The translations under genes were made by a program, and so were the position numbers. From a virus, in the IMG/VR virus record IMGVR_UViG_3300010401_000003, positions 1-64,000 of that record: a stretch of DNA of 64,000 nt; one strand, given 5' to 3'. Of this stretch, positions 10,828-33,977 are shown in pieces. Each line of letters opens with the position of its first letter. Position 1 is the first letter of the stretch. The notes under the pieces were generated by a model. That model searched no databases. It worked only from the letters and a program-made list of their open reading frames with translations, and had not been told where the DNA came from.

Positions 10828-11433
10828 TCACGTGCTGCCGCGCACGGGCAAGAGCGCGCGGATCGGGTGCTGGGTCAAAACCGGCTGGGCGCGGCCCACG
10901 GTCGCAGGCAGCGGGCCGCGGAAGGCCGCGAGCTCGGCGTTGGTCGCCGCGTCGGGTGTCCACGCTCCGTTTGAATAGCGGTAGAAGCCGCAATCCATTT
11001 TCGAAAACGCGCGCGCGCTCGGGTCGGAGGTGAATTCCGATTTCGCGGCCGTCCAGGTCGAGACGGCTTGGTTTTCCACGTACCAGAGGTGATATCCCTT
11101 CGCTTGCTCGAAGGCGGTGAGCTCCTCGAAGGAAGCGCAAGCGGCCGCGGCAGGGGCGCTCTCTTTCTTCAACGCCCAGGCGACGCCGAAGACCACCACC
11201 GCGCCGATCGCGATCGCGAGGAGCGTGCCAGCCGGATCGGCATTCTCCAACATGGCTTCGTCGTCCTTGCCTTCGCGGCGCAGGGCCGCGCGGCGCTCGG
11301 CGGCGCTCATCTTGTGGTACCAGAGCGCGCCGCACACCGCGCCCGGGTTTCGCGCAGAGCGTGAAGCGCCGCGCACGCAATCGCGCATCCACTTCTTGGG
11401 CGGACGCCGCGGGTTTTCCTGTGCCGCAGTCAT
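10828..11433 (-). CDS. Single-pass membrane protein with basic ENP/RNP-motif N-terminus
   Basis: MTAAQENPRRPPKK..ARNPG..MLENADP, then TM LLAIAIGAVVVFGVAWAL; TGATG overlap with the upstream gene. Confidence 0.7.
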   Translation of the reverse strand: MTAAQENPRRPPKKWMRDCVRGASRSARNPGAVCGALWYHKMSAAERRAALRREGKDDEAMLENADPAGTLLAIAIGAVVVFGVAWALKKESAPAAAACASFEELTAFEQAKGYHLWYVENQAVSTWTAAKSEFTSDPSARAFSKMDCGFYRYSNGAWTPDAATNAELAAFRGPLPATVGRAQPVLTQHPIRALLPVRGST

Positions 11434-12011
11434 CACAGAATCTTTTCGACCAGCGCGTAAGACAATCCGCCGAGCGCCGTCGCTGTGCCGGTCGCGCCGG
11501 TCACGCGAAGCTTGACGGTTTGGCCCGCGCTTCCCGTCGTCACGAAGGTCTCCGCCGTCGGTTGCGGCTGCACGCTGTTGGTGTTCGTGACCGGAGTCAG
11601 ATACGCGCCGTGGCCCGCATGGATCGGCAGGTTGGTGATCGCGTCGACCCACTCGATGCCGAAATTGACGGTTTCTCCGCTGAAGGTCGAAAGCGCGAAG
11701 TGCGCGCTCAGTCGAAAGGTGCCGCTCGGGCCGAGGGTGAAGATCCCCGTCGCGGGGTTGTACGCTATGTCGCCGAAGCCGGCGTCGTCGAAGCGAATGT
11801 CGGTGTTGTTCGCGAGGAGCTGTCCCGGGCCGAGCGCGTTGTACTCGGTTTGCACGAAGTTGCCGCTCTGCGACGGATGCGACGACTGACCGGACGATCC
11901 ACCTTGCAGCGATTCGACCGCGTCGCTGATTTTCTGCGCCCAGTTTCCGGCCGGCGAGGAAAGCTGAAGTTGTCCGCCGACGGCTTTCAACGCGTCTCTG
12001 ATCAGGCCCAT
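11433..12011 (-). CDS. Putative spike/fibre head protein (QLQLxSP N-module + C1q/BclA-like beta domain)
   Basis: Full-length paralog of 33357..33977; IAYNPATGIFTL..TFRLSAHF..TVKLRV. Confidence 0.6.
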   Translation of the reverse strand: MGLIRDALKAVGGQLQLSSPAGNWAQKISDAVESLQGGSSGQSSHPSQSGNFVQTEYNALGPGQLLANNTDIRFDDAGFGDIAYNPATGIFTLGPSGTFRLSAHFALSTFSGETVNFGIEWVDAITNLPIHAGHGAYLTPVTNTNSVQPQPTAETFVTTGSAGQTVKLRVTGATGTATALGGLSYALVEKIL

Positions 12012-12015
12012 GTGC

Positions 12016-12300
12016 TCAACTCCCTTTCCAAAACCAGTACGCCAATCCTACCAGCACCGCGACCACTCCGATCGCCGCGGGCGATAGGCCCGCGCCCGAA
12101 GTCTTCGGGGAGGCCGAAGGGTTGGGCGATGGAGAAAGACCAGAGGCAGGGAGGGGGGAAGAGCCGGTCGTGCCCATGAAGTCGGGCGGAAGAATCACGC
12201 TCTTCGCACATTGTCCTACCGCAGCGAGATTGCCGGAGCTCGAGAGTACTCGCCGCCCCTGCCGCGGAACGATCGCTTGGATTGGGTGAAAACCCAACAT
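12016..12300 (-). CDS. Small C-terminally anchored membrane protein
   Basis: Ser/Pro linker, then AAIGVVAVLVGLAYWFWK. Confidence 0.6.
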   Translation of the reverse strand: MLGFHPIQAIVPRQGRRVLSSSGNLAAVGQCAKSVILPPDFMGTTGSSPLPASGLSPSPNPSASPKTSGAGLSPAAIGVVAVLVGLAYWFWKGS

Positions 12301-12301
12301 T

Positions 12302-13075
12302 TCAGCCTACGTAGCACGCCGAGTCGGGTGCTTTGGGGTCGATCGCGTTCCAGCGGGCGGCGAGCGTCGCGATGAGAGCTGCAGGCATGACTGCCTTGGC
12401 CTGGTAGATGTGATCGGCCGTGCCCATCGGTATGTCCCTGTTTTCAAAGCCGTAAATGATGAGACCGCCGCGGCGGCGCGGAGGCTTTGAGGGTGGGATT
12501 GGGTAGGCGACGGTGCGATCCGGCCCGGTCACCGGTCCGCCTTGCACGTGGACGCTGGTCGGGAGGATCGGCAAGACCGGCGCTTTGGGGTCTTCCGAGG
12601 GCGCCAGGCCGCCGCTCAGCGTTTTCCAGAGCCAATCCGCGGTTTCGGTCGTGCTCGCGTAAGTGGGTTTTACGGCCGAATGGGTGATGGTGAAGAGGCG
12701 CTCGTTGAGAAACGCGAGCTTGGCGAAGTTCAGCCAATTGGTCATCGCGGCGGGGGTGATGGGTTTTCCCGTGTGGATTCCATCGATTGCCACCGCCGCG
12801 TCCAAATGGCCGCCATCGCTCGAGGCCAAGAGCGAATGCACGCCTTGACACGAGGCAGAAAACCCCAGCGTCGCAATCCGCAGCGGCGTCACCCCGGGCG
12901 CGAATTTCGCGACGATCGCTCGTACCGGGGATGGCGAGGAATAGCTTGCGAGCGGTTGCCCCCAGCTCGCCGGATTCGGCAGCACCAGAAAACGCGTCGG
13001 CCGCTGAAACGCGGCCTTGGCCGCCTCGGGAAATCCAGAGTGCGCCCAGGCAATCACGATGTCCGCGTCGGCCAT
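12302..13075 (-). CDS. Putative alpha/beta-hydrolase-fold protein
   Basis: Nucleophile-elbow-like LGFSASCQG, AVAIDGIH, C-terminal ADHIYQ. Confidence 0.45.
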   Translation of the reverse strand: MADADIVIAWAHSGFPEAAKAAFQRPTRFLVLPNPASWGQPLASYSSPSPVRAIVAKFAPGVTPLRIATLGFSASCQGVHSLLASSDGGHLDAAVAIDGIHTGKPITPAAMTNWLNFAKLAFLNERLFTITHSAVKPTYASTTETADWLWKTLSGGLAPSEDPKAPVLPILPTSVHVQGGPVTGPDRTVAYPIPPSKPPRRRGGLIIYGFENRDIPMGTADHIYQAKAVMPAALIATLAARWNAIDPKAPDSACYVG

Positions 13076-13086
13076 CGAAGAGAAGG

Positions 13087-15717: not shown

Positions 15718-15718
15718 G

Positions 15719-16167
15719 TCAATCCACGGTGCAAACGAGAGCACCGATCGCGAACGATGGGGTGATGCCGGGGTTTATGACGAGCGAGGCCGTCAGCGCG
15801 CCGTACCAGAGCATTTCACCCGCGCCGCTCGTGTCGCGGCCGACGTTGAAGTGCGTCATGGTCTGCGGGCCGCTTCCCGCCGACGCGTAGGTGATTGCGG
15901 CGACGTTTGCCGACTGCGTCGGGGCCGTGCCCGACACAGTCCAGCCGCCCGCCGAGCGCGCCACGGGCACGCGGGCGTAGTTGGTCCAGGTCGCTTCGTT
16001 GGTGAGCTGGGTGCCGGTTTCGCCCGGGTCGGCGGTTTGAAGCCCTATGAAGAACGATCCGGCCGTGGTGCTTCGCGGAGCCCCGTGGCATCGCCGAGGT
16101 TTGCCCAGTTGGTGTTGTTGAAGATCAACAACATCAGGTCGTTCTCGGCGGCGTTTCCTAAGCTCAT
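15719..16167 (-). pseudogene. Phage fibre-associated structural gene interrupted by a 1-nt frameshift near 16074
   Basis: MSLGNAAENDLMLLIFNNTNWANLGDATGLR continues in another frame as STTAGSFFIGLQTADPGETG..NEATWTNYARVPVAR; one added G restores ..LRGSTTAG.. Confidence 0.75.
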
Positions 16168-16702
16168 GATTTGGCTCCCAGGTCAGCTTCACGAACGAGC
16201 CTGTCGACTTCGGCCCAGAGATCCTTCCCATGTTTCTTCTGCCGGTAATGCACGTCGTCCGGATCTTCGCCACTGGCGGCGGGAGGGGTCGGCAACTGTG
16301 CATGGAGCGCCTCGAACACCTTGGTGCGCGTGGCGCGCACGAGCGCCTCTTCTAGCGGCAGGTCGCCATGGACGCGGCGATCGCGCTCGTGCTTCATGAT
16401 CTCGGCCTGATAGAGAGATTGGACGTCCGCCTCGGTGAGGGTGTGCTTCATTTGGGGTGCCTCTTCATTTCTCCGAGCACGAAGGCCGCAACGTCCTTCA
16501 TGTCGACTCGGCCGTCCTTGGTTTGGCACTTCTCCATGGCTTCGGTGAGAAGCCTCGAAAGCGCGTCGATCGCAGTCGTGTCTTCCACGATCTGGTCGAG
16601 ACGCTCGACCGCGGATTTGCCATACAACAGGCGCATCCGCTGGCGCAGACCCGGCGTCGGGCGGGCGACTCCGGAGAGCACGCCGTTGTCAACGACTTTC
16701 AT
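16164..16702 (-). CDS. Two small hypothetical genes (16448..16702 and 16164..16451)
   Basis: ATGA-coupled ORFs. Confidence 0.55.
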
Positions 16703-16759: not shown

Positions 16760-17140
16760 TCAGCAGCGCTCGATTTTGAAGTCCATGACGATGCCGCCGG
16801 CAGTCGGCGCCGCGAAGGCTACCTGAAATCCAATGGTCGCCTTGGCGGGGATCGCGAATTGCTGCAAGTTGCCCCCGAGCATGGTGCCGATCACGATGTA
16901 GTTGGTGTCGGGTTGCACGCAGCCCTCGGGGAACGGCACGAACTGACTCACCTGTCCGTTGGCGATCGGAACGTGTAGGAGACAGCAGCCGCCCGCCGCG
17001 GGCGCGTCATCGCCACCCAGATTGCCGCCACCTAAGCCAGCGACCGCTTGAGCCAAACGCATGAGAGCTCGGCCTAGCGGCGATCCAAGCTGCACTTGGC
17101 TGCCCACATTTTTGACGATGTCTTCGATTGCTGTTGCCAT
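16760..17140 (-). CDS. Small structural protein with QLQLxSP N-module
   Basis: IEDIVKNVGSQVQLGSPLG; C-terminal QPDTNYIV..KATIGFQV resembles fibre beta-domains. Confidence 0.6.
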   Translation of the reverse strand: MATAIEDIVKNVGSQVQLGSPLGRALMRLAQAVAGLGGGNLGGDDAPAAGGCCLLHVPIANGQVSQFVPFPEGCVQPDTNYIVIGTMLGGNLQQFAIPAKATIGFQVAFAAPTAGGIVMDFKIERC

Positions 17141-17451
17141 GATTTGTCTCCCTTACTACTTCACCGGCACCGCGACGACCAGCGCGAGAGCGCCGTCCGG
17201 ATCGTCGTAGGCGAATTTTGGGGTGTCCGAGGGGTCTTCGGGATCTCGCGGCAACTCGCGGCGCGCGGCGTTCCAGCCGTCATCGGTGTAAGCGCGGCAC
17301 TCGCCGGTCGCGTCGATCAGATGCGTGTGAAGGCTTCCCCTGTAGCCGAGCTCGGCGGCCGCGGCATGCAGGATGTCACTCACGTCGTCGCCATCGAACA
17401 CGTTCGGGGGGTACGTTTTTCCAACGACTGTGATCGCGTAGGCCATGGGTT

Positions 17452-19119
17452 TCACCAGTATCCGTACATGTGGATAAAATCCATTTGGTTATTGGTGGCG
17501 CCCTTCGAGCTCTGCACGCAGGTCGGACGAAGGTTGGTGGTGTTGAGCGGCAGCGTCGCGGAAATGTCTGCGTCGTGCACGACGGTGTTGGTAGAACGAT
17601 TGATCAGCGTCGTGTGGATCTTGGTGTCATTGGGGAGCGCCCACATCTGCACCTCGAACACGCAGGGTCCGGCCGTGTTTGGGTCGCCGGTCACGAGCGA
17701 AGCTTTGGTGATGATTGCGGCCGACTTGGTGCTCCCACCGACGTTGTCAGTGCTGATGACGGTGATGTTGGCGTCTCCGGTGTCGGCTCCATAGACGACC
17801 CGGTTACCGCTCGCGCTCGGGTTGGCACCTCCGGCGATCACGGCGTTGTTGATGCCGATGGAAATGATCGAGTCGGTTTGGATGACCGCGACCGCGAAGC
17901 GGAAGCAAACGAAGAACCCACCCACTCCCGCGACGGCACCGCGGCACATGCCGGGGTCGGTGAAGTTTTGGCCGACGAGAATGTTGGCCGTCGAGGTCGT
18001 GGTGTTGTTGCGCGGGCTCGAGGTGCGGAGATCGGTGTTGGTCGGCGAAACGGTCGTCACGCCGGTCAGGGCGTTCGTGGTGAGACCGAGACTGTCTTGC
18101 AGACCGCCGTTGCTGCGCGGGATCACGTAACGAAAAGAACGCGACAGGACCGCGGTGCCCACTAACGCTTGAGGGATGCGAGCGAAAGAGGCGGTGGAAG
18201 CTCCTGCCTGGAGCGCCGCCGACACCTGCACGTCGTCGGCGTTGACGACGACGGAGCCATCGGCGTTTTGGCCGACGTCAAAGGTGCGATTGGCGGAGAG
18301 GTCGCCGCCGCCTGTCAGACCCGCTCCAGCTGTCAGCGTGCGCGCGGGTTGCACGCTGGTCGCTCCGAGCGCGGCTCCCGATTGGATCGCGGCGGACACC
18401 TGCACGTCGTTGGCGTTTACGACTACCGAGCCGTCAGCATTTTGGCCGACGTTGAAGGTGCGATCGGCGGAGAGGTCGCCGCCGCCCGTCAGGCCCGCGC
18501 CAGCCGTCAGCGTGCGCGTGTTCGGGACGGAGAAGGCTACGAGAGAGTCGAGTGCGGCCTTGTCGGCCGCGCTCATGAAGCCCGCGACGAGGTTGGTGGC
18601 TATTGCGTGGAGGGCGCCGCCAGAAAGGTTTCCGTGGTTTGCGTCAGCGATGACGCCCACACGGATGTCGTCCGCGCCGACGATGATCGTGCCGTCGGCG
18701 GCGACGATGTTAAACGTGCGATCTGCCGAGAGCTCGCCGCCGCCGGTCATGCCCGCGCCGGCCGTCAAGGTGCGTGTGACCGGAACGTACGGACCACCCG
18801 CGACCAGCGCATCGAGCTGTGCCTTGTCGAGGGCAGACATGAAGCCAGCGACCAGCGGCGTCGCCAGATCGTGGAGCGTGCCGCCCGGAAGATTTCCGTG
18901 CGCGTGGACGTGATCCGCGCGCGACGCAAAGAACGAGTTCCCTCCGGACCCGACGACCCCAACGGGCATCGCGGAGTTTCCGAACGGAGTCGCTCCGCCC
19001 GCAGCGATGATGCCCGCGTCGGCGAGACGCGAAATCAGTTGCATCCACACGCCGAGCGGCGACGACAGTTGGATCTGTCCGCTCGTGGCCTTCAGAACGT
19101 CTTCGACTAACCCGGACAT
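17452..19119 (-). CDS. Fibre/spike protein
   Basis: QLQLxSP N-module, ASRADHVHAH, 2x ATxLVAGFMSAxDK, 3x RTLTAGAGxTGGGxLSAxRTF fibre repeats, lectin-like C-terminal region. Confidence 0.8.
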   Translation of the reverse strand: MSGLVEDVLKATSGQIQLSSPLGVWMQLISRLADAGIIAAGGATPFGNSAMPVGVVGSGGNSFFASRADHVHAHGNLPGGTLHDLATPLVAGFMSALDKAQLDALVAGGPYVPVTRTLTAGAGMTGGGELSADRTFNIVAADGTIIVGADDIRVGVIADANHGNLSGGALHAIATNLVAGFMSAADKAALDSLVAFSVPNTRTLTAGAGLTGGGDLSADRTFNVGQNADGSVVVNANDVQVSAAIQSGAALGATSVQPARTLTAGAGLTGGGDLSANRTFDVGQNADGSVVVNADDVQVSAALQAGASTASFARIPQALVGTAVLSRSFRYVIPRSNGGLQDSLGLTTNALTGVTTVSPTNTDLRTSSPRNNTTTSTANILVGQNFTDPGMCRGAVAGVGGFFVCFRFAVAVIQTDSIISIGINNAVIAGGANPSASGNRVVYGADTGDANITVISTDNVGGSTKSAAIITKASLVTGDPNTAGPCVFEVQMWALPNDTKIHTTLINRSTNTVVHDADISATLPLNTTNLRPTCVQSSKGATNNQMDFIHMYGYW

Positions 19120-19121
19120 GG

Positions 19122-20780
19122 TTATGCGAACGCTACAATCATCGCGCCGTTGCCAGTGCCGACAGTCACGCCGTCGTAGCCGTTCATGTACGGGATCTGC
19201 GCCCAGGTGCGCGCAGTTCCGCCGACGTTCGCGTCGGTCGCTCCGGTGACCGTAGGTTTGGTCGTATACATCGTCTTGCCGCCAGAGCGCACGCGCATGC
19301 CGACTCCAGTCGAACCCGTTCCCCAGATCAGATCGTTGCCGCTAAAGAGTGCTGCGGCTCGCACGTTACCGTCTTCGATGAGGAGTCCATCGGCGCCAGC
19401 ATCGAACACCGCCATCGTTGCGACACGCAGCACGCCGTTGTAGCGCACGCGGATACCGTCATTACCGCTCTGGCTAAATAGCGTGTCGTAGTCGACGAAA
19501 AGGGTTGCCCCCGATTGCACCGACGGCCGTCCGCGCACGAGGCACGCGAAGAACGAGGTCGAGCTCGGCGCCGCTGCGATCACGACACCCGTGTCGATGA
19601 AGCACGTGCACAGGTTTGCATTGAAGGGCGGGTGCATGCGGCAGCCGTAGGCTACTGGCGCATTCGTGACCGTGCCGATCGGCAGCATCGAGATCGGGAT
19701 GTCGCTCTGGGTCAGGTAGACGTTCTGGAGGACAACCTGCGTGCCGTTCACGCTGGCGGCGCCGCCGTACTGCGCACTGATGTTATTGAGCGTGAGGTAG
19801 CCGATCGTCGTCAGGCTCTCGACTACGAACGTGTTTCCGGCCGCGACGTTGACGGGCGTCGGCGTGAAGGGCAGCGGGTTTGCCGCGAAGGACATCGTTG
19901 TCCATGGGCTCGTGCGGTACACGCCTCCGCCGAAGTCTCGATCCAACCACGCGATGGCGCCGGTGCTAGCGCCGCTCGTTGCGCGAATGCGCTGGCCGGT
20001 GCGGCCGGCGCCGAGGCCCGCCTCGGTGATCGCGCTCGCGGTTTGGGTGGCGCGGTTCAGGTTCGTGACGGCGGAGAAGCCTCCGCCTGGCGACGTGTAG
20101 ATCGTCGTCGCAACACCGGTGATGCGGAGTACGCCCGCTGACCCGAGGATGAAGTTGAAGATGCACGGGTCGGTCGCGGGGACGTTGTTGAGATAGGTGA
20201 CGGTGGTGTCGGCGACGATGTTCCAGATCGTTCCGACGCGACGCTGACGTTCAGCGTCGTGCTGGATTGCAGTGCCCGCAGTGAGCCCGTCGTTCGCATC
20301 ACTTCCTGCGACTGGATCGATAAACCAAGCCGTCTGGGCTCGCGAAGCTACGTTGCCTACGCCGAGAGCTGGGTTTATTTGCAGGTCGTTCGCGTTGACA
20401 AGGAGCGTTGCGTCAGCATTTGCGACAACATCGAATGTTCGGTTGGCGGAGAGATCGCCACCGCCGGTTAGACCGGCGCCGGCTGTGAGCGTGCGCGTGG
20501 GCTGCACAGCAGTCGCGCCAGCCGCGGAACCCGCCTGAATGGTCGGGTTCACTCGAATGTTGTCGCCGTTGACGATGATGGAGTTGTCGGGGTTTTGGCC
20601 GACCGCCAACTGCGTTCCATTGGGCACGAGCCCCGGGCCGGCGAGCGCGTTCACTTCACCGGCGGCGATCGAGACTATTTCATCAACACCTTGCGAAACC
20701 GCGAGAATCCACCGCCCGTGGCGACTCGCAAGCTGGAGTTCGCTTGCGAGGGACTTCGCTATATCGAGTATATTTCCCAT
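19122..20780 (-). CDS. Fibre/spike protein with probable beta-helix head
   Basis: N-module variant, TRTLTAGAGLTGGGDLSANRTF, WFIDPVAGSDANDGLT motif typical of pectin-lyase-like starts. Confidence 0.75.
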   Translation of the reverse strand: MGNILDIAKSLASELQLASRHGRWILAVSQGVDEIVSIAAGEVNALAGPGLVPNGTQLAVGQNPDNSIIVNGDNIRVNPTIQAGSAAGATAVQPTRTLTAGAGLTGGGDLSANRTFDVVANADATLLVNANDLQINPALGVGNVASRAQTAWFIDPVAGSDANDGLTAGTAIQHDAERQRRVGTIWNIVADTTVTYLNNVPATDPCIFNFILGSAGVLRITGVATTIYTSPGGGFSAVTNLNRATQTASAITEAGLGAGRTGQRIRATSGASTGAIAWLDRDFGGGVYRTSPWTTMSFAANPLPFTPTPVNVAAGNTFVVESLTTIGYLTLNNISAQYGGAASVNGTQVVLQNVYLTQSDIPISMLPIGTVTNAPVAYGCRMHPPFNANLCTCFIDTGVVIAAAPSSTSFFACLVRGRPSVQSGATLFVDYDTLFSQSGNDGIRVRYNGVLRVATMAVFDAGADGLLIEDGNVRAAALFSGNDLIWGTGSTGVGMRVRSGGKTMYTTKPTVTGATDANVGGTARTWAQIPYMNGYDGVTVGTGNGAMIVAFA

Positions 20781-21837: not shown

Positions 21838-21868
21838 CGTCGTTCTCAGAGCTTATGATGCGAGCACC

Positions 21869-22864: not shown

Positions 22865-22895
22865 CATCTTGTTGCAAGATGTTACATCTTGCTAC
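22861..22895 (+). promoter_or_regulatory. Putative sigma70 promoter overlapped by a triple operator ACATCTTG / CAAGATGT / ACATCTTG
   Basis: TTGACA at 22861; acatcttg (22864-71), caagatgt (22875-82), acatcttg (22884-91), immediately before ATG 22896. Confidence 0.65.
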
Positions 22896-23567: not shown

Positions 23568-24433
23568 TCTCGTCGATTCGCGTCACCCGCGATTATCCGG
23601 TCTCGATTGCGGACAACGACGAATGGGCGCTCGGCGCGTGCCGCGGCGATGCGGATAACGTCAATTGGGACATGCTCTTTTCCCAAATCTCGCGCGATTG
23701 TTTGGTGGTCGACGTTGGCGCGCATCTTGGCACGTTCGCGGTGCGGGCGGCGGCGCTCGGCGCCTTCGTCATCGCGCTCGAAGCTGGGAGCTCGAACGTG
23801 GAGCACCTTCGCAGAACTGCGCGACTCAATCCGGATCTTCGGATCGAGGTCGTCCACGGCGCGGCCTGGTCGAAGCCCGGACGAGTTCGGTTTCGCGAAG
23901 ATCGCGCGTACGGAATGATCTGTGCGGAGGGCGGCGCAGAGATTGATGCCGTCACAGTCGACGATGTCGTGGATCTCTATCCGCGCTCGATGCGCAACCC
24001 CGACGTTTTCGTCAAAATCGATGTCGAGGGCTCGGAGCCGCAGGTGCTCCGCGGAATGCAGCACCTCCTTGCCTTCGATCCGGTGGTTTTTTACGAAAGC
24101 AATTCGCATACGCTCGCGCTCCAAGGCTCGGACATTCTTGAGCCCCGGCGGATTCTCGCGGAGAGTGGCTACGTCAGCTTTTTGATCCACGAGGGCGTGC
24201 TCTATCGCCTCGGTCCGGAAGACTCACAGCCGACGGTCTATACCGACGTGATTGCGCTCCGGCGGGAGCGGGCTATATCACCCGCGTCCGGAATGCCGCT
24301 TGCGCTCTTTCAATCGGCAATGCTTGCCGGGATGGCGCGTCTGCCCATTGAAGGCAAAGCGCACGTCCGGCGGGAGCTTCTCCGCCGTCCGGATCTCGCT
24401 AGCCCCGAGCTTCTCCATTTGATCGGCGAATGA
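23564..24433 (+). CDS. FkbM-family methyltransferase
   Basis: VVDVGAHLG and FVKIDVEGSEPQVLRG. Confidence 0.92.
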   Translation: MISSIRVTRDYPVSIADNDEWALGACRGDADNVNWDMLFSQISRDCLVVDVGAHLGTFAVRAAALGAFVIALEAGSSNVEHLRRTARLNPDLRIEVVHGAAWSKPGRVRFREDRAYGMICAEGGAEIDAVTVDDVVDLYPRSMRNPDVFVKIDVEGSEPQVLRGMQHLLAFDPVVFYESNSHTLALQGSDILEPRRILAESGYVSFLIHEGVLYRLGPEDSQPTVYTDVIALRRERAISPASGMPLALFQSAMLAGMARLPIEGKAHVRRELLRRPDLASPELLHLIGE

Positions 24434-25673: not shown

Positions 25674-25713
25674 CTCGACCCCGAGTGTCGTTCGAGAGGC
25701 CCGGTCCGGTCAA

Positions 25714-26214
25714 CTAACCGCGGGCAACGAGCGCGAGATTCGTGTCTTCTTCGGTGATCGATTCAACGACCATCCCGAGCCCGGCCATGAGATCGAGGAG
25801 GCGCGCATGGTCGAAGCCCGCATAGTGCGCGTTCAGGCGCCAGTTTTCTCTGCCGACCACGGCTTCGTGGCCGCCGTAGATCCAAAGGCTTGCCTCGCGC
25901 GCGTCGAATGTCCCATCGAGATAACGCTGACAGAGCACGCGCAAGTTCGGGACGCGGAGGGTCAGGCTCCCGCCGGGCTCCAAGACGCGTTTCCATTCGA
26001 CCAGAACGGTCTCCGTGTGCATCCAGGACGTGTGCTCGAGAATGTCACCCGCCAGGATCTCGGAGAACGCGCCGTCCGGCCACGGCAGCGGGCCGAAGAC
26101 ATCGACCGTCTCGTCGCACGGCATGCCTTCGGCGATGTCGACGTTCCAGAAGTCGTCTCGCCAATCGGGGCCGCAACCGAGGTTTAGCTTGTTGAAGTCT
26201 TCTCGTTGTCGCAT
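25714..26214 (-). CDS. Class I SAM-dependent methyltransferase
   Basis: LNLGCG, LPWPDGAF, ILEH, RVLEPGGSLTLRVP. Confidence 0.88.
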   Translation of the reverse strand: MRQREDFNKLNLGCGPDWRDDFWNVDIAEGMPCDETVDVFGPLPWPDGAFSEILAGDILEHTSWMHTETVLVEWKRVLEPGGSLTLRVPNLRVLCQRYLDGTFDAREASLWIYGGHEAVVGRENWRLNAHYAGFDHARLLDLMAGLGMVVESITEEDTNLALVARG

Positions 26215-29200
26215 CTATTCGATTCCCATCGCGCGGAGCATGTTCGGGAAAGAGTGGCGGGCGGCGTACGCGGACTGGCGCTCGAGCGCAGCTCTGCGCT
26301 TGTCGTCGTCTTCCAAGAGATCTCTCACGACCGCGTCCACTTCTTCTTTGTTTTCGTAGACGACGACCGCGCCGACGTGGCCGTGCAGGTCGAAGTAGGA
26401 TTTGCTCCGGTCGACGACGAGCGGGATCTTAGCGGCCATGCAAAAACGCGCCGAGGCTGACGAATAGGCGCGACTCGTTGCGACGCGCGCCAGCAAGGCG
26501 ACGCGGTGGCGCGCGAGCTCGGAAGCGCACTCGGCTTCGTTCATGAAGGCTCGTCGGGGGCGAAAGCGGCGCCAGCCGCGGGTTTCGTACCATGACGAGA
26601 TTTGGTCGAGCCGCGGTCCGTAGCCGTAGATCGGGACGCCGAGGCGCTCGGCGACGCCGACCAAGAGATCGATGCGACGACTCGGATCGGCGAAGCCCAT
26701 GAAGGCCAGGCCGCCGAGTGGCTCACGGAAGGGCATTTCGAAGGACGGTACCGGGAGCGGGCAGTAGATGCCGCCGGCCCATTCGAGCGCTTCGGGATGA
26801 TGGAAGACCAACAGATCGGAGTGGTCGCGGTAGGCATGCATGTTGTGCAGCCACTCGAGCGAGGTTTCCGCGTGGTGATAGTTCACGAATATTTTCGCGC
26901 CGCGGGTCCGAAGGATTTCTAGATTTTTGATGTCGCCCGGTCCGAGCGCCTCGCCTGTTGGCTGGCAGCCCCATTGCACTTGCAAGATCACCGATTTCAC
27001 CGGGCGCTCGTCGGACACTTGTCGAGCTACGTCGATCGAGCGCACCCACGACGCGCGCTGGTGGGCGTCCCGCAAAAACATCGCATGGCTCGCGACCCCG
27101 TGGGGGACGGAATTCGGCCGGTAGACGATCAGGAGCTCGGACTTTTCTCGGGCGATGACCTCGGCGGCTTCGAGTGGGCGCTCGGCGTCGAGCAATTCAC
27201 GCAAGGTGAAAGTTCGGGCGAGCTCGGCGACGTAATCGGAGGGAGCCTCACCGGTCCATTTTTCGTGAAGTGTGGCCGCGGCAAGCTTGGGGAGAGCGGT
27301 GTTTGCGTGGCCGCGGATTTCTACCGCGTGGACCTCGTGCGGGTGATGCACCTCGGCAGCCGGATCGGCGTAGATGGCAAATCCCGCGCGCCGCATGTTC
27401 TTGGAGAAGCCGACGACGTCGTCGGTCTCGCTGAATCTCACGCCGCCGTAAATCGGAGCCGCGCGACAGAAGAGAACGCTGCCCACGGACTCGAGCTCGA
27501 TGGGCGATTGCGCGAACCTCGCGACCTCATCGCGCGTTGGCCCTTTGCCAAAGAGCGGATCGATATGGCCGGCGCTCCGGCGGAAGGCCCAGGAGTCGTA
27601 AAACTGATTTCCACGCCAAACCATCGGCGCCACAAGGCCCGCGCGGGGACGCTCGTCGAGTGTTCGTTGGAGCCGCTTCGCCAGATCGGGCGCGTACATC
27701 AAATCGGAGGTCAGGAAGAGCACGTATTCCACTTCGAGATGCTCGGTGATGAAGTCGAGGCCGACGTTGGACACGTGCGCGAGCGTCTTTAGGCGGACCG
27801 GGTTTAGCGTGGAGCCGAAGAGCGGGTTACCGAGCGAGACGTGCAGCACGGACACTCGATCGTTCTCCCTGGCCCACGCATCCAACAAATCCGGAGTCTC
27901 GTCGGTGCTGTCGCCCTCGACGCACACCACGAAAGGACGCTCGGCCCAGTCGAGCGATTCGATCTGCGCGCGATAACGACGCACGACCTCGGGGCATTGA
28001 CGGAAGAGCGAGACAATCGCGAGCCGGTTTTTCTTCACGTCGCGCGGCGGCGGGCGCGGCGCGACTCGAGCGATCGTCGGCGATACCAAATCTTCGAGGA
28101 GCGTGCGCATGAGCGCACCGACGTCGGCCGAGGTGAAGCCTGCCCACGAACGCCGCTCTCTTTTCGGTAACGGGTGGGCAGCGGCCTCCTGCATCGCGGC
28201 GGCGGCACTGTCCAGATCGAAGTCCCACCACTTCGCATCAGGTTCCCAGCCGTAGACCGGATCGCACGGCAGCATCGCGCTCGCTTTCACGCGAATGTCG
28301 CCCTCGGCTGCAAACTCTTCGGGGCCGCCTGATTCGGAATAGATCATCCGGTTTCCCGACAAGAGCGCGTCGAACGCCGGCATGTCCCATCCCTCTCCGT
28401 GGGAGAGCGACAGATAAACGTCGCCGTCGCGGTGAAGCGCCAAGAGCTCAGCCTCCGACCACACCTCGACGGGCACCCGCACCCACTGTCGTATTGACTC
28501 AGTCGTCCAGCCGTTTGCGCGCACCTCCGGATCAGCCAGCAGCGTCCAAAGATCGGCGAGGCTCCCGGCAACGTGGGTCGTCTTCAGTGTGAGGCGCGCT
28601 TCGCCAGGACGGAACGCGCGCAAAAACGCATGCAGGCTTTTCTTTTGGTCCTTGCGCGTGTCGAGCACGCCGATTCGATAGAAGTGGATCGGACCCGGTG
28701 AGCGCTCGCGGCCCAGCAAGCCTAGATGCGGATCGTTCGGGAAGAAGGGGACATGGACTTTGTGCAAACGGAAGTCCTGCACCCCGGAATTGCGAAAGGC
28801 ATCGATGTTCTTTTGGTTCGGGAGCCACCATTGCTTGACGCGATTGGCCTGAGCGACGCTTTGAGGACCGATGCGATCGCGCTCGATCATCGTCGTTAGC
28901 GCGACGGGCAACGGACGCGAAACAAGGCGATTTATTTCGGCCGCTTGCTCAGCATCGCCGCGGGTCGGGAAGCCACCCACGAAGGCGCTGACTGGGAGCG
29001 CGCGCAGCATGTCCATCACTTCCGCCGCGGCCTCGGGGCGCGCGTGGCCGTAGAAAGGATCGAGCGTGAGATACACCGGGAGCCGCGTGTCGCTGAGAGC
29101 TCGCGCCAATCGTCGCCATGCCGCGCAGATGCCCACACCCCAAAGCGCCCACGGGGCGTGAAACTCCGCGGCGCTGAGAGCGCCGGTGGCAACGGGCGGG

Positions 29201-29334
29201 GGCGGCGGAGCCGGCGGAGGCGGATACTTCGCTGTTACGCGCACGGTCGGCTGCGCGCGATTTTTTCCAAAGCGTTGCTGCTGAAGCGCGCGGAGTTTTG
29301 ATTGCCACTGATTGCGCTGCGTTTTGCTGTACAT
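26215..29334 (-). CDS. Multidomain glycosyltransferase (GT4-like + GT-A-like + further GT-B-like region)
   Basis: RKDQ..FLRAF, SHGEGWDMPAFDA; IVSLFR..VEGDSTDET..FYDSWAFR..LESVGS; C-terminal SASARFCMAAKIPLVV. Confidence 0.85.
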   Translation of the reverse strand: MYSKTQRNQWQSKLRALQQQRFGKNRAQPTVRVTAKYPPPPAPPPPPVATGALSAAEFHAPWALWGVGICAAWRRLARALSDTRLPVYLTLDPFYGHARPEAAAEVMDMLRALPVSAFVGGFPTRGDAEQAAEINRLVSRPLPVALTTMIERDRIGPQSVAQANRVKQWWLPNQKNIDAFRNSGVQDFRLHKVHVPFFPNDPHLGLLGRERSPGPIHFYRIGVLDTRKDQKKSLHAFLRAFRPGEARLTLKTTHVAGSLADLWTLLADPEVRANGWTTESIRQWVRVPVEVWSEAELLALHRDGDVYLSLSHGEGWDMPAFDALLSGNRMIYSESGGPEEFAAEGDIRVKASAMLPCDPVYGWEPDAKWWDFDLDSAAAAMQEAAAHPLPKRERRSWAGFTSADVGALMRTLLEDLVSPTIARVAPRPPPRDVKKNRLAIVSLFRQCPEVVRRYRAQIESLDWAERPFVVCVEGDSTDETPDLLDAWARENDRVSVLHVSLGNPLFGSTLNPVRLKTLAHVSNVGLDFITEHLEVEYVLFLTSDLMYAPDLAKRLQRTLDERPRAGLVAPMVWRGNQFYDSWAFRRSAGHIDPLFGKGPTRDEVARFAQSPIELESVGSVLFCRAAPIYGGVRFSETDDVVGFSKNMRRAGFAIYADPAAEVHHPHEVHAVEIRGHANTALPKLAAATLHEKWTGEAPSDYVAELARTFTLRELLDAERPLEAAEVIAREKSELLIVYRPNSVPHGVASHAMFLRDAHQRASWVRSIDVARQVSDERPVKSVILQVQWGCQPTGEALGPGDIKNLEILRTRGAKIFVNYHHAETSLEWLHNMHAYRDHSDLLVFHHPEALEWAGGIYCPLPVPSFEMPFREPLGGLAFMGFADPSRRIDLLVGVAERLGVPIYGYGPRLDQISSWYETRGWRRFRPRRAFMNEAECASELARHRVALLARVATSRAYSSASARFCMAAKIPLVVDRSKSYFDLHGHVGAVVVYENKEEVDAVVRDLLEDDDKRRAALERQSAYAARHSFPNMLRAMGIE

Positions 29335-30512
29335 CAGAGTGTTTTCATCCACGTAACTATTTCGTTGCCGATGTGCTGAGCTCGGAAGCGATCGCGCGGC
29401 CAGTCGAGAACTTGCACGGGGGGCTCACTACGAACGCGAGCCATGGCCTCGACGAGTTTTTCTAATTCATAGTCGGCGTAGGTCGACGAGTGCTCCCAGC
29501 CGTGCGCCGTGTAATCGGGATGCACCGGCACCTTTCCCGTCGAGGGAATGAGAATGTCCTCGGATCCCAAGAAGTCGCGTGGGCCGCCGGAGTCGGTGGT
29601 GATGACGCGCCGCTTGGCGAGCTTGGCCGCGTAGGCGGGCATATCGAATCCCTCGCCACGCGAAGCGGAAACGTAAACGTCGCCCGGGGCGTGGATCAGT
29701 CGAATCAGATCGGGTCCGGACAGGGTGCGGCTCTCGATGCGGATCGATTCCGACCAGTTTTCTTTCGTCCAGCCGTTCGTGCCGAAGCTCTCTGCCGCGA
29801 CCGTTTCGGGCGTGGGCATGCTCCGGTGCACGTATTGACGCTTGATCGTGAGCGTCGCGTCACCAGGACGAAACGCGCGCATGAAGGCTCGGATGAGATT
29901 GTCGGGCGCCTTGTGCGGACTCCAGGAACCGATCCAGTAGAATGCCTTCGCCTCCTGCGGCGGATCGAGGCGCAACAGCTCGTCCTCGTCAAAATGCGGT
30001 ACGCCGAAGTGGCGGACGTTTTTCAGACCGAGCGCCTCGAGCGCCTCACGATTCGCGCTACAGGGCACCCAAACACCGACCAAGCGCGCGAGCGATGATG
30101 CGATCGCCGGATCAAAGTCTTGGCGCTCGAACATTGTATGAAAAATGGTCTTCGGCTTGGTGGGCAGCGCTCGGATCGCGCGACCGAGCTTTTGCGCCGT
30201 TGCAAACGCGCCGGACCACACGCGGATATCGATATCCAAGGCGTTACACGGTTTGCCCAAGTGTCCGGCTTCCCTTGCCACTTCGTCAGACCGAGTCGGA
30301 ATGGGCGGAAGCCGCACGTCGGCGCCAACTAGAGCGAGCGCGCGCGCCCAAGCGCGAGCTGCGATGTCCCAGCCCACCTCGAGCCGACTCCAAGGAATAT
30401 CGAAGCGCACGTAGGGATCGCCCGCGCGGGGCGGGATCACGGGCTCTACGCCCGGGCGAAAGCGTTCCTCTTGGAGTTTTTTCAGGCGCTCAATCCACGT
30501 TATTTCAGGCAT
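29334..30512 (-). CDS. Glycosyltransferase, GT4-like
   Basis: HKAPDNLIRAF, DVYVSASRGEGFDMP, TDSGGPRDF. Confidence 0.88.
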   Translation of the reverse strand: MPEITWIERLKKLQEERFRPGVEPVIPPRAGDPYVRFDIPWSRLEVGWDIAARAWARALALVGADVRLPPIPTRSDEVAREAGHLGKPCNALDIDIRVWSGAFATAQKLGRAIRALPTKPKTIFHTMFERQDFDPAIASSLARLVGVWVPCSANREALEALGLKNVRHFGVPHFDEDELLRLDPPQEAKAFYWIGSWSPHKAPDNLIRAFMRAFRPGDATLTIKRQYVHRSMPTPETVAAESFGTNGWTKENWSESIRIESRTLSGPDLIRLIHAPGDVYVSASRGEGFDMPAYAAKLAKRRVITTDSGGPRDFLGSEDILIPSTGKVPVHPDYTAHGWEHSSTYADYELEKLVEAMARVRSEPPVQVLDWPRDRFRAQHIGNEIVTWMKTL

Positions 30513-31615
30513 CGCTCGATCCATTCACTGAATTTTTTGGCCACAGCTTCGGGCCGGTGAGCTTCGGGCAACGCGCGCTTTTTCGGCGGCCTCTCCTTGG
30601 CTTCGCGAAGCGCCCACATAAGATCCGAGAGCGGATAGTCGATCAGCGATTGGCCCTCTCCCCAAATTCCGGCGTACTCGGGGGCCGCAATGGTGCCCGT
30701 GGCGTGCACCAAGATGTCGTCTTGGTCCAAGAAGTCTTCGGGGCCGCCCGAGGCGGACGTCACGATGCGCCGGCCGGCAAGGCGGGCGCGGAAAGCGGGC
30801 AGGTCGATGCCCTCGCCGCGGCTCGCGGAAGCGTAAATGTCGGTGCGCGCTTCGAGCGCGAGCATCTCATCCGCAGACAGCGTGCCATCGATGATCTCGA
30901 TCGCTTGGTGCCAGTTGTCGACACGCCAGCCGTTGTCTCGCGTCTCTCCGCACTCAAGCTCGGAAGCAATTACGAGCTCGGGGCCGGCGTAGACCGATCG
31001 CGTCCATTGGACGGCTCCGATCTTCAGGATGAGCTCCGCCTCGCCGAACTTGAAGGCACGCATGAATGCGCGAAGCAGTCGATCGGGGGCTTTGCGCGGC
31101 TCCCACCGGCCGTGCCATGCGAACACGCGAGGGCGGTCGCTTGGCGGCGGCAGCGACAAATGAGGATCGTCGTCAAAGAACGGCAGCGGGATCACGCCGA
31201 CGTCGTCGAGACCCGCGGCCGAGAGACGCTCGCCGTTCTTTTCGCAGGGGACGAATACGCCTTCGAGCTCGGCGAGCTCGGCGACCACTTCCTTCTGCAC
31301 CGCGATGCGCTCGAACATCGTGTAAAACATGCGCGGCCGGCGAGAGGCGCGGAGCGCCTCGAAAACATGACCCATGTTGTGAATACCGCCGAGCGGGCAC
31401 GAAAAAATGTAGGCGTCCCACGAGCTCACCGGGATTGTGAGCGGCAAGTACTTTTTGATTTCTTCGTTCGGGGCCGATTCGGTGAAAACCTGCACCGGCG
31501 ATTTCAAGCGGACATCCCAGCCGGCGAGAAGCATCGCGCGCGTGTAGGCCCGGGCAGCGATCGCCCAGCCGTCGGCGGGATTGGCCCACAGGGTCTCGAA
31601 GACGAGCGTTTTCAC
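30500..31615 (-). CDS. Glycosyltransferase, GT4-like (paralog)
   Basis: RKAPDRLLRAF, DIYASASRGEGIDLP, SGGPEDF. Confidence 0.88.
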   Translation of the reverse strand: MKTLVFETLWANPADGWAIAARAYTRAMLLAGWDVRLKSPVQVFTESAPNEEIKKYLPLTIPVSSWDAYIFSCPLGGIHNMGHVFEALRASRRPRMFYTMFERIAVQKEVVAELAELEGVFVPCEKNGERLSAAGLDDVGVIPLPFFDDDPHLSLPPPSDRPRVFAWHGRWEPRKAPDRLLRAFMRAFKFGEAELILKIGAVQWTRSVYAGPELVIASELECGETRDNGWRVDNWHQAIEIIDGTLSADEMLALEARTDIYASASRGEGIDLPAFRARLAGRRIVTSASGGPEDFLDQDDILVHATGTIAAPEYAGIWGEGQSLIDYPLSDLMWALREAKERPPKKRALPEAHRPEAVAKKFSEWIERCLK

Positions 31616-31932: not shown

Positions 31933-32013
31933 ACGCGCTCGTAGCCTACAACGGCTGTGCACTTTTTCGCTACTGGTGGCGCAGACCCCGGGGACCGCGC
32001 TACGGTCCCGGCC

Positions 32014-32610
32014 ATGGACCGCGACCCCACCGCTATCGTTTTTTCCCTTGGAATCCTGATCTTGGCTGCCGTTGCTATCGCGTTCGTCGGCATGTTTCTG
32101 CACCGTCGCCGCGAAACGGAAAGTCCGGCGCTTCGGCGCGAGCGCGAGATTTCGCGAAAGCGGAGCCTCGATGCCGGAACCCATGTGGCGCTTTCAGATG
32201 GCTCGATCGTTCCATCCTGCGAAGTGAACGGGTGCAAATCGGCCGCGAAGTGCCGCCCGCTGAAGTTCGCGCGCGAAGAGGGGCTCGGGGACTTCGTGCG
32301 GCGGCTCTTTGGAGCTCCGCCGCGGCTTCGGGTGATCGAAGACGTTTGGGGCGAGCCGGTCCGCTGCGAGAGCCATCAGTTTTTGGCTCGTGAGGAAATG
32401 CGCCTCAAGCTCGCCGACGTCGAACGGCGTCGGCAAGAACATCAGCGCGACGCCGAAGTCGAGCTCGGCCAATTCGAGCGCACGCTGAAAGACCGCGTCA
32501 GCCTGGTCGTCAGCAAACACGAACGACAGCTCGGCGGACGCAAGCGCAAGAGCGACGCTGGGAACGTGCTCCCTTTTTCGTCGTCGCGGCCGACCGGCAC
32601 TCAGGGGTAA
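32014..32610 (+). CDS. N-terminally anchored membrane protein with coiled coil
   Basis: TM IVFSLGILILAAVAIAFVGMFL, CxxxxC...CxxH, charged helix. Confidence 0.65.
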   Translation: MDRDPTAIVFSLGILILAAVAIAFVGMFLHRRRETESPALRREREISRKRSLDAGTHVALSDGSIVPSCEVNGCKSAAKCRPLKFAREEGLGDFVRRLFGAPPRLRVIEDVWGEPVRCESHQFLAREEMRLKLADVERRRQEHQRDAEVELGQFERTLKDRVSLVVSKHERQLGGRKRKSDAGNVLPFSSSRPTGTQG

Positions 32611-33045
32611 ATGAAAACTGCGGCGGCGATGTTTCTCGCGCTTCACCCGTGGTGGGCGACGATCAAACATGAGGCCCGCCGCGAGCACGTCGATCCCTAC
32701 GCGCTCGCTGGGATCGTTTGGCACGAGAGCCGCGGCAACCCGAATGGGTTCTTTCAGGAGCGCGGGGGGCACTGCTCGATCGGGCTCGGGGGCGTTTTCG
32801 TAAAGAACTGCGATCCCGCGCGCGTCGCGGCGCTTCGCAATGGCCCTTACAACCTCCGCGTTTCGGCCAAGATCCTTTCGGGCTCGATCCGCTACTGCAA
32901 GGCGCATCGGCTCGAGCGGCGCTGCGCCGCGGGCGAACGCGTTTTCCCGGGCGGCGGCGGCGCCAACCTCTACGCGGGCAACACCACGCGATTCGCGGCG
33001 GAATTGGCCAAGATCCGACGCGACGTCCGGCGCGCCTTTCGCTAG
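32611..33045 (+). CDS. Lytic transglycosylase (SLT-like)
   Basis: VDPYALAGIVWHESRGNP with catalytic ES; PYNLRVSAKIL. Confidence 0.75.
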   Translation: MKTAAAMFLALHPWWATIKHEARREHVDPYALAGIVWHESRGNPNGFFQERGGHCSIGLGGVFVKNCDPARVAALRNGPYNLRVSAKILSGSIRYCKAHRLERRCAAGERVFPGGGGANLYAGNTTRFAAELAKIRRDVRRAFR

Positions 33046-33356
33046 AGGTTGGGGTTTCTTACGCGCCAGCGCTGGGCGCCGGACGTGGACCGCGCTTTCG
33101 GGGTTTGCGATGGCGGTCGAGATCCGGTCGGCCGGTCGCGTCGTGAAAGCTTGAGCACGCGCACGAGATCGGCGTGGCGTCTGCGCCGTCGCTCGAGGAG
33201 GTCGAGGTACGCCTCGAGCTCGCGGCGGAGTTTCTCGCGGCGGATCTCTTCGGGATTCGCACCGCGCCAAATGACGCGAGACGTCGCATCGCCGGTGCTT
33301 ATGATTGTGATTGTCGAATTCGCGGCAACCACAAACTCTGTCTGATCCGCGTACAC

Positions 33357-33977
33357 TTACCGAAGCTGCTTCACGACCGCGCCGAAAAAGTCGGCCGGGA
33401 TCGACGCGGTGCCGGTGGCGTTGGTGACGCGGAGTTTCACTTGCGCGTCCGTCGTGCTCGAGGGGATGAACACCGCGCGGGTGCGACCGCCGTTGCTCGA
33501 GGCGTTGGTTTGGGTCGACGGCTTGTAGATGCCGGTGATGTTTCCGAAGAGCGGCACGTTGGTGTTCGCGTCGACCCAATCGATCGCGAAGAAGCCGGCG
33601 GCTGCGTCGCTGAAAGTTCCGACCGCACCCCCCGCGTCGAGCTCGTAGACTTTTCCGGGGATGAGCGTGTAAACGCCGGTGTTGAAGTTGTAGGTCGCGG
33701 ATCCGCGAACGAAGATCGTGTTGTTGAGGATGACGTCCGAGCCGGTCGTCAGGAGCGTCTGATCGAGACCGGCGCGCTTGGTCTCGAGGATGTCGAGATC
33801 GAGGCTCGCGCCTCCGCCGCTTCCGCCGCCGCCTCCGACGGGCGTGACGCCGAGCGCGATCAAGAGCAGGTCCACCTGATCGATCACCTCGCTGACTTTT
33901 TGCGCCCAGTTTCCGACCGGACTCGTCAGTTGGAGCTGCGAAGAGGCTGCTTTCAGTGCGTCGCGGATGCGTCCCAT
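33357..33977 (-). CDS. Putative spike/fibre head protein, paralog of 11433..12011
   Basis: MGRIRDALKAASSQLQLTSPVGNWAQKVS; YNFNTGVYTL; IDWVDANTNVP; VKLRVTNATGTA. Confidence 0.65.
   Translation of the reverse strand: MGRIRDALKAASSQLQLTSPVGNWAQKVSEVIDQVDLLLIALGVTPVGGGGGSGGGASLDLDILETKRAGLDQTLLTTGSDVILNNTIFVRGSATYNFNTGVYTLIPGKVYELDAGGAVGTFSDAAAGFFAIDWVDANTNVPLFGNITGIYKPSTQTNASSNGGRTRAVFIPSSTTDAQVKLRVTNATGTASIPADFFGAVVKQLR

Follow-up and report, generated by a model that had tools for sequence, protein, structure and literature searches.

What does a short sequence do that opens five fibre- or spike-like genes of a single virus, when the parts that follow it differ from gene to gene? The question is raised by the first 64,000 nucleotides (bases 1-64000, GC 63%; hereafter the window) of a 73,644-bp virus record, IMGVR_UViG_3300010401_000003. 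A preliminary description of this DNA, made from its letters, had noted five such genes with a common N-terminal module and had proposed that the module is a universal capsid-docking adaptor for interchangeable receptor-binding heads. The analysis presented below leads us to regard the combination of a shared N-terminal adaptor with interchangeable heads as well founded, and to lean towards attachment to the virus particle as the adaptor's role.

The module and its five copies

Exactly five open reading frames (ORFs), all on the minus strand, open with the module when the window is translated. Their start codons lie at 12011, 17140, 19119, 20780 and 33977, and their products measure 192, 126, 555, 552 and 206 amino acids (aa), respectively.

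11433..12011, minus strand: module gene 1 (P0001, 192 aa); module at 11904-12011 (first 36 codons), GGSSGQSS linker, putative C1q/BclA_C-like head
16760..17140, minus strand: module gene 2 (P0002, 126 aa); module of the 'MATAIED' subtype at 17033-17140, Gly-rich linker, Cys-containing head of ~80 aa
17452..19119, minus strand: module gene 3 (P0003, 555 aa); module at 19012-19119, stalk of phage tail-fibre repeats, C-terminal head
19122..20780, minus strand: module gene 4 (P0004, 552 aa); module at 20673-20780, short fibre-repeat stalk, large head, beta-helix-like by eye
33357..33977, minus strand: module gene 5 (P0005, 206 aa); module at 33870-33977, GGGGGSGGG linker, putative C1q-like head

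A profile made from the first 45 residues of the five ORFs was run against the window translated in six frames and retrieved these five copies only (E 1.5e-23 to 1.6e-19, the next match having E 2.4); from the whole 73,644-bp genome it again retrieved only these five. As such a profile is circular as a test, it was rebuilt from 83 module instances of other sources, among which neither the window's own copies nor the near-identical P0011 were included. The non-circular profile picked the same five ORFs and no others in the window (E 3.9e-13 to 4.4e-9; next best 0.29). When the residues of the six-frame translation were shuffled 20 times, no score exceeded 10.0 bits, whereas the real copies score 65.8-78.8 bits. 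On translation, the five N-termini read exactly as first quoted.

The module sets in at residue 4-6 in all five ORFs. It had been described as an N-terminal unit of ~35 aa; an N-terminal unit it is, but its conserved core spans ~33 aa. Six positions (D7, K10, Q17, L18, S20 and G23) are invariant across the five copies. The motif originally proposed, D-x-x-K-x4-QLQLxSPxGxW, fits at most positions, except that Trp is replaced by Ala in the gene starting at 17140 and Pro by Arg in the gene starting at 20780. Similarly, the interval 11433-33977 assigned to the system does hold the five genes, but also many unrelated ones. From 89 module instances the consensus reads D-L-L-K-A-A-G-G-[EQ]-[VIL]-[QS]-L-S-S-P-[LF]-G-R-W-[AM]-x-[RK]-[VLI]-S-x-A-[VLI]-D, with a loop in which one Gly is present in 88 and one Ser in 79 of the 89.

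Pairwise identity among the five modules is 31-61%. Three of the genes encode the invariant Ser by TCG and the other two by AGT, and the DNA is not conserved beyond the need of the protein. Conservation at the protein level only, combined with divergent codons, points to old copies held by selection rather than to recent duplication.

No family match for the module was found in Pfam, PHROG or NCBIfam with the five proteins and their relatives (in Pfam, 13 homologues were included at E values up to 1). The anchor families that we know as T7 tail-fibre N-terminal domain and P22 head-binding domain gave no Pfam match in the five proteins and 13 homologues either. Nor did a known non-structural domain, which the preliminary description had named as a result that would speak against its proposal, turn up in the three collections.

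In a crude hydropathy scan the module region was free of hydrophobic segments, and so were P0001, P0002 and P0005 over their whole length. The module proteins would therefore need a protein partner to stay on the particle. N-myristoylation of the 'MG' N-termini was considered and dropped, as many family members start with MA or MS and since, to our knowledge, bacteria lack such a system. One might also imagine that the module proteins do not stay on the particle at all, being soluble lectin- or enzyme-like factors freed at lysis; excerpts of PMC6872550 do report non-incorporated soluble depolymerases proposed for some phages. In those phages, however, solubility is suggested by the lack of a conserved N-terminal element, whereas here such an element is present on five or six genes per genome, which makes this scenario very improbable.

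Heads, relatives and module forms

In all five proteins the 26 residues that follow the module consist for 50-62% of Gly, Ser, Ala or Pro and read as a flexible tether. What lies beyond differs in length (126-555 aa for the entire proteins) and in type, as had been noted at the outset: putative C1q/BclA-like heads, tail-fibre repeats, a beta-helix-like part and a small, putatively sandwich-type head.

The stalk of P0003 matches phrog_21962, a 'tail protein' (E 2e-14), and the protein has sequence matches in PDB to 9d93 ('tail collar fibers gp4', E 2.1e-4) and to 9j1l (FtbO, E 1e-4); compared with 50,697 known phage records it gave only an 8% match, in the tail-fibre repeats. The stop codon of P0004 lies 2 nt before the start of P0003, and its residues 78-136 match gp4 of 9d93 as well (E 7.4e-5). 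The architecture of P0004 is also found in P0011 (503 aa) and at 50264-51736 of G402, one of two distant relatives (G402 and G403) described below. The 'MATAIED' N-terminal subtype of P0002 recurs in P0020, P0025, P0029, P0032, P0052 and L007 and at 36572-37213 of G403.

The heads of P0001 and P0005 (~130 aa) can be aligned to one another, and eight proteins from databases join this alignment. P0001 has a faint match to BclA_C (PF18573; E 0.017, 15.4 bits against a cut-off of 38) and P0005 an equally faint one to seadornavirus VP9 (E 0.013, below cut-off). When the C1q-like head was searched as a profile against PDB, only BP39L lectin came up (E 0.0075, again below cut-off). As all of these family matches fall short of their cut-offs, the C1q/TNF-like nature of the two heads is a lead rather than a finding.

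Three further features of the locus bear on the heads.

12256..12302, strand not applicable: cassette insertion point; 46 bp in the window against an insert of ~700 bp carrying P0053 in the 77.6-kb strain (see below)
15719..16303, minus strand: fibre-head gene without module; its C-terminal ~110 aa match PF23140 (Gp80, podophage GP4 fiber I)
17156..17455, minus strand: 99-aa ORF overlapping the stop of module gene 3 and translationally coupled; conserved beside the homologous head in G402 (70% identity)

The PF23140 match scores 63.5 bits (cut-off 27), and the true start of this ORF is probably internal. The 99-aa ORF is possibly an assembly helper for the fibre.

Relatives of the virus are few. 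A search of viral contigs returned only a near-identical IMG/VR contig of 77.6 kb, a strain-level variant whose aligned blocks are 79-100% identical (~95% for the long ones). It has all five module genes and a sixth, P0053, in which the module is joined to a head that is BclA_C/C1q-like by eye. Species-representative genomes yielded only the same contig as in the window, identical and lying within a metagenome-assembled genome (MAG) labelled Gemmatimonadaceae, which is weak evidence as to the host. In the phylum of this MAG the module occurs in 2 of 401 genomes, namely the MAG itself and a single marginal match of 23 bits that was not counted. JGI metagenomes contained this contig and two short ones.

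Distant relatives were found with alignment A6 of the candidate capsid protein (see next section): G402, of 97.1 kb, and G403, a 42-kb fragment, whose capsid candidates are 37% and 40% identical, respectively. A five-gene block around the capsid candidate, the lysin and a glycosylation cassette are kept in both. G402 has four module genes with heads (two C1q-like, one large and P0004-like, one other), and a homologue of P0001 at 58% identity. G403 has two full-module genes and two P0005-like genes with a short form of the module, in which both helices are kept and the GGQxQLSSPxG loop is missing. In addition, each of the two genomes has one gene of ~100 aa made of three tandem modules (L035:18257-18559 in G403), placed just downstream of the lysin and a holin-like gene. 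In the window P0005 lies apart from the other four module genes, downstream of the lysis genes, where the relatives have the free triple-module gene.

The unrelated receptor-binding-type parts, the gain of a cassette in the 77.6-kb strain and the presence of the module in three related viruses bear out the idea that the heads are interchangeable, and support their exchange or addition between strains as cassettes. The adaptor is not, on the other hand, the "universal" one that had been claimed, because some homologous spikes do without it: the genes at 15719-16303 and 14944-15744 are fibre-like and have no module, the G403 short forms lack part of it, and the heads of P0003 and P0004 have homologues in G402 (59% and 63% identity) in ORFs without module. 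In all, four G402 spike genes, these two homologues among them, lack the module and open with a different motif. The region 46032-50330 of G402 (loci L038/L039) comprises three tandem paralogous large spike genes and the P0003-head homologue, all without module; two of these genes have 'MTTxQVxLSPNxNL' as their N-terminus, a sequence whose counterpart lies inside the stalk of P0004. The module-less spikes of G402 may represent a second way of attachment or a branched spike.

A search of outside sequences with a module profile, suggested in the preliminary description, was productive. Among 1.84 billion representative proteins, 46 matches were obtained at E values up to 1e-3, and 44 were kept; two long repeat proteins, P0022 and P0045, were dropped as unrelated. 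Fifteen of the 44 have one N-terminal module followed by a C1q-like, beta-helix-like or other head, or are fragments. The largest class (27 of 44) consists of proteins of 93-130 aa with tandem modules only; two modules are detectable in 17 of them and three in 10, and all 27 align in a three-repeat register. The remaining two carry tandem modules before an enzyme-like head, P0027 having three in front of a Kelch propeller and P0050 two in front of a BNR/sialidase-like part. A search with the triple-module alignment (A9) yielded no further contigs. The free triple-module gene itself was found neither in this genome nor in the ~95% identical strain.

An AlphaFold2 (AF2) model of the triple-module protein, computed from the 27-sequence alignment (predicted local distance difference test score, pLDDT, 75.3; predicted template-modelling score, pTM, 0.66), has six helices forming three hairpins. 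Each repeat unit is predicted to consist of a short helix, the conserved GGQxQLSSPxG loop and a longer helix. Foldseek found no match for the model in PDB (best E 3.7), and VIA-align returned TPR-like rows only (Z 5-6.6, noise level for helical proteins).

Stacked hairpins of this kind lend themselves to another interpretation, in which the module is an oligomerisation or bundling element whose hairpins bind one another rather than the capsid, some other component attaching to the particle. The module might then nucleate trimer folding, join heads into a mixed spike or join them to a free triple-module hub. The predicted packing of tandem modules agrees with this, as do the free triple-module proteins of G402 and G403 and the recurrence of module subtypes (MATAIE, MGRIL and MGxIRD types) across genomes. 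Still, no triple-module hub accompanies the five module genes of the window or the six of its near-identical strain, C1q-like heads and fibre repeats trimerise by themselves, and a stand-alone protein would be unexpected for a pure folding nucleus. We consider this interpretation unlikely.

Virion type and the role of the module

To what kind of particle might the module attach? The first 123 bases of the record are repeated at its end; the contig is therefore closed or terminally redundant. Megablast of positions 11000-35000 against the 50,697 phage records gave no match. Scans of ~150 candidate ORFs over the whole genome with Pfam, PHROG and NCBIfam recognised a tyrosine integrase, a C5 DNA methylase, RadC, HNH and NUDIX proteins, and a lysin with a peptidoglycan-binding domain. 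The same scans recognised no terminase, portal or HK97 capsid, although very divergent versions might escape them, no tail protein beyond the fibre-type matches, and no packaging ATPase of the FtsK/HerA type. In agreement with the latter result, no P-loop (Walker-A, [GA]x4GK[ST]) was present in any plausible ORF in six frames of the whole genome. SPV1-type viruses are likewise not known to have a packaging ATPase.

A conserved trio of genes is the candidate for a jelly-roll capsid shell and, by the same token, a candidate docking surface (42734..45578) for the module.

44394-45578, minus strand: 394-aa protein of the trio
43639-44352, minus strand: 237-aa protein of the trio
42734-43624, minus strand: 296-aa protein of the trio, the possible partner considered in the preliminary description

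Homologues of the 394-aa protein number 23; they measure 377-415 aa and are devoid of Pfam domains, and P0057, P0058, P0059, P0070 and P0074 among them are encoded on contigs of 20-33 kb. Its AF2 model (pLDDT 77.3, pTM 0.75) is a beta-sandwich, mostly beta. The fold matches are weak: with Foldseek against PDB, SPV1 is best at E 1.9e-3 and PRD1 P3 follows at ~2e-2; with VIA-align, HHIV-2, SPV1, HCIV-1, PRD1 and P23-77 score Z 5-6.3, mixed with non-viral beta-sandwiches; and in BFVD there is one match at E 3.2e-4, with tectivirus capsids at 4e-3 to 1.5e-2. ESM Atlas gave only weak feature matches for this protein (0.77, RNA-virus capsid clusters) and none for the 296-aa protein. All three proteins were compared by tblastn with the 50,697 phage records, and no relative was found, in SSIP-1 or elsewhere. 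Many neighbours of the trio contain a hydrophobic segment near the C-terminus. Lys and Arg make up 11-13 of the last 25 residues in three membrane proteins (13087-14928, 38300-39949 and 41523-43013), and these tails might condense DNA. Taken together, these data make it fairly probable that the virus is tailless, with a jelly-roll capsid and a membrane.

The tail-fibre repeats of P0003 and P0004, together with the podophage fibre-head domain PF23140 nearby, could be taken to mean that the module is the tail-attachment domain of a tailed phage, whose head, portal, terminase and tail genes would have diverged beyond recognition. Fibre repeats and head domains move between virus types, however, and the predicted beta-sandwich of the 394-aa protein, with jelly-roll capsids as its best matches, is not what a tailed phage would lead one to expect. 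Nor are a genome of ~150 ORFs with no recognisable terminase, portal, HK97 capsid or tail protein and the lack of a P-loop in any plausible ORF. A tailed phage is accordingly a very improbable source of the module.

A further trait of the region is a set of sugar-modifying genes, with which the virus probably makes and attaches a modified sugar of its own.

21812..31615, genes on both strands: glycosylation cassette, lying between module genes and present in both distant relatives

The cassette contains genes for a GDP-mannose 4,6-dehydratase and an FkbM methyltransferase (plus strand), a C-methyltransferase, and a 1045-aa multi-glycosyltransferase with two GT1-like genes (minus strand). Its position between the module genes and its conservation in all three viruses raise the possibility that the module is a recognition tag, either a glycosylation sequon or docking site with the invariant loop Ser as target, or a chaperone or sorting tag directing proteins to a membrane-containing particle. 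The near-constant Ser and Gly of the loop would fit such a tag, and so would a second N-terminal motif shared by membrane proteins (see below), as it suggests that N-terminal tagging may be a habit of this virus. But the two short-form head genes of G403 keep both helices and lack the entire loop, and a mere substrate would hardly be expected in the form of a triple-module protein without a head. A tagging role seems to us improbable.

We favour, with a confidence that only just tips the balance, the interpretation that the module is a shared virion-attachment adaptor for interchangeable host-recognition proteins. This preference is based on the anchor-tether-head build of the proteins, on the presence of several such genes per genome, and on the fact that the anchor is kept while the capsid candidates are only 37-40% identical. 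It is based also on the gain and loss of heads as cassettes, on the lack of a membrane anchor in the module proteins, and on their likeness to the N-terminal anchors of tailed phages with multiple receptor-binding proteins (RBPs).

Under the favoured adaptor interpretation, the module would hold host-recognition proteins on the virus particle, the virus itself being temperate, tailless and of soil origin, with a capsid of jelly-roll type and, probably, a membrane. Every such protein would be built as anchor, flexible Gly/Ser-rich tether, and head or stalk; heads would vary freely and be gained or lost as cassettes, and the anchor would be selected to fit one socket. The functional unit would be three hairpins, so that the module probably works in threes. 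Trimer-forming heads (C1q-like, fibre repeats) would bring three copies of the module together, Kelch and BNR heads, usually monomeric, would carry two or three modules in one chain, and the free triple-module proteins of ~100 aa would serve the same socket as plugs or adaptors without a head.

Several observations weigh against this scheme. Virion attachment, the socket, the rule of threes and the display of different heads on one particle are all things that we infer, as is the virion type, the fold matches of the capsid candidate being weak (Foldseek against PDB E >= 1.9e-3, VIA Z <= 6.3). The rule of threes is derived from two headed multi-module proteins only, one with three modules and one with two, and from the general knowledge that C1q-like heads and fibre repeats are trimers and Kelch and BNR heads monomers. 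In the triple-module model the hairpins are arranged much as in any TPR-like stack, not as in a three-fold bundle. The loop-less genes of G403 imply that the loop, the best conserved part of the module, is not always needed, and the absence of a triple-module gene from the window's genome and its close strain implies that the free plug is not essential. Finally, the anchor is missing from the G402 homologues of the P0003 and P0004 heads.

A number of other genes deserve mention. A second N-terminal motif, M-x-x-[LRK]-[KRLI]-W, was recognised by eye. At least eight proteins, putatively of the membrane or structural, carry it, and in most of these a hydrophobic segment is present at the C-terminal end. 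The motif may act as a tag for sorting or assembly. All eight genes below were picked by eye, and the N-termini read MSMRWLEEKV, MGMRWLEKKV, MSKLLWLGEV, MKKLRWLGQP, MALVKWIDPV, MALLKWSGAL, MALRWNTPID and MSALIWNASV.

34216-35031, minus strand: second-motif gene
35031-35555, minus strand: second-motif gene
37608-38300, minus strand: second-motif gene
38300-39949, minus strand: second-motif gene
39956-40576, minus strand: second-motif gene
41523-~42730, minus strand: second-motif gene
48130-~48996, minus strand: second-motif gene
49165-50157, minus strand: second-motif gene

The minus-strand gene at 13087-14928 encodes a 613-aa protein with ~20 tandem repeats of ~15 aa, similar to GQTGNLTGAGALAA, followed by a Pro-rich linker, a region that is transglutaminase-like by eye, a C-terminal hydrophobic segment and the basic tail mentioned above; its sole Pfam match, 'Zein', reflects composition. 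A 509-aa protein (55254-56783, minus strand) has a weak Rep match (PF23343, E 3.6e-4, below cut-off) and, by eye, HUH-like 'HVHIHIW' and 'YLTKD' motifs; it may initiate rolling-circle replication, and this in a genome of 73 kb. Two paralogous lysin-like proteins are encoded on the minus strand at 35969-36766 and 37608-38300, one with PG_binding_1 and one with a C-terminal membrane segment. On the plus strand, the small ORF at 32611-33045 has an SLT-like 'HESRGNPN' motif by eye. The 248-aa protein at 50177-50923 (minus strand), conserved in G402, has a Cys...His...Asp pattern that looks transglutaminase- or protease-like by eye and gave no family match.

Comparison with other attachment systems

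The closest parallel is offered by multi-RBP tailed phages. Excerpts of PMC6872550 describe exchangeable RBPs attached by N-terminal anchors or by short conserved N-terminal peptides in several groups of phages (Klebsiella KP32, KP34, Menlow and PhiK64-1; K1-5/SP6; G7C), and in KpV767 a truncated RBP that keeps only the N-terminal peptide. The system in the window shares with these phages, as far as the excerpts describe them, a conserved extreme N-terminus, divergent receptor-binding parts, reused attachment units and horizontally exchanged heads. It differs in that all five genes carry the same module, whereas the excerpts describe one anchor together with distinct peptides. Furthermore, the window's proteins have no sequence relation to those of the phages (Pfam and PHROG being negative), no T4gp10-like branching domain, and belong to an apparently tailless virus. 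In the build of their N-termini they agree with the phage RBP N-terminal anchors, a functional class: a conserved element at the extreme N-terminus precedes unrelated receptor-binding parts.

Spikes of the PRD1-adenovirus type are also reminiscent of the module proteins, being trimers that a short N-terminal part fastens to a jelly-roll capsid. The tail of the adenovirus fibre sits on the penton base and PRD1 P5/P2 on P31; some adenoviruses have two fibre genes with the same tail. These viruses have one or two spike types and a packaging ATPase, whereas here there are five or six types and no ATPase was found; sequence similarity is lacking. As in PM2 and Cr39582, whose syntenic genomes carry non-homologous spikes according to excerpts of PMC6356626, it is in the spike genes that genomes of otherwise conserved gene order vary. 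The capsid candidate's best (if weak) fold matches, the circular genome and the many membrane proteins recall SPV1, P23-77, HHIV-2, SSIP-1 and PRD1-type viruses; at 73.6 kb, with no ATPase found and a capsid trio without tblastn relative, the genome departs from those of the small jelly-roll membrane viruses.

P22-type tailspikes, too, combine a shared N-terminal particle-binding domain, the head-binding domain, with unrelated receptor-binding parts. That domain is larger than the module, mostly beta, binds the tail and occurs in one gene per genome, and it has no Pfam match here. Excerpts of PMC6872550 call it dome-like. With TPR-like repeats the module shares a period of ~34-40 aa and a helix-turn-helix build, the triple-module model superimposing at Z 5-6.6 over 78-98 residues (root-mean-square deviation 3-4 Å). 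These Z values are, however, at noise level, there is no TPR match in Pfam, and the loop between the helices of the module is long and its best conserved part.

The principle is already known from tailed phages and adenovirus-type spikes; new are the module family, its copy number, the single-chain triple form and the virus lineage. In tailed phages, conserved N-terminal anchors with exchangeable heads explain the evolution of host range and are a basis for engineering. The same anchor logic appears here with an unrelated module of 33 aa, in a virus group that is seemingly tailless, and five or six copies per genome is an unusually high number. We know of no counterpart in phage anchor systems to the single-chain triple-module proteins, nor to tandem modules on heads that are likely monomeric.

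If the module is an anchor, it labels the genes for host recognition throughout a group of uncultured viruses from soil, and it points to the vertex or capsid protein that bears the socket, making virion architecture testable. Put together, the various elements sketch an undescribed lineage of large, tailless, membrane-containing and self-glycosylating viruses of soil bacteria, in which no packaging ATPase was found. These viruses would use a universal three-hairpin plug and socket, with up to six heads on one particle. The number of modules would match the oligomeric state of the head (one per chain for trimers, tandem copies for monomeric enzymes), and headless triple-module proteins would fill or regulate sockets. 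As a whole this picture is tentative, and we would call it doubtful rather than probable. Should it be true, multi-RBP cassettes would for the first time be known from viruses other than tailed phages, and a compact scaffold of natural origin would be at hand for changing the specificity of a virus.

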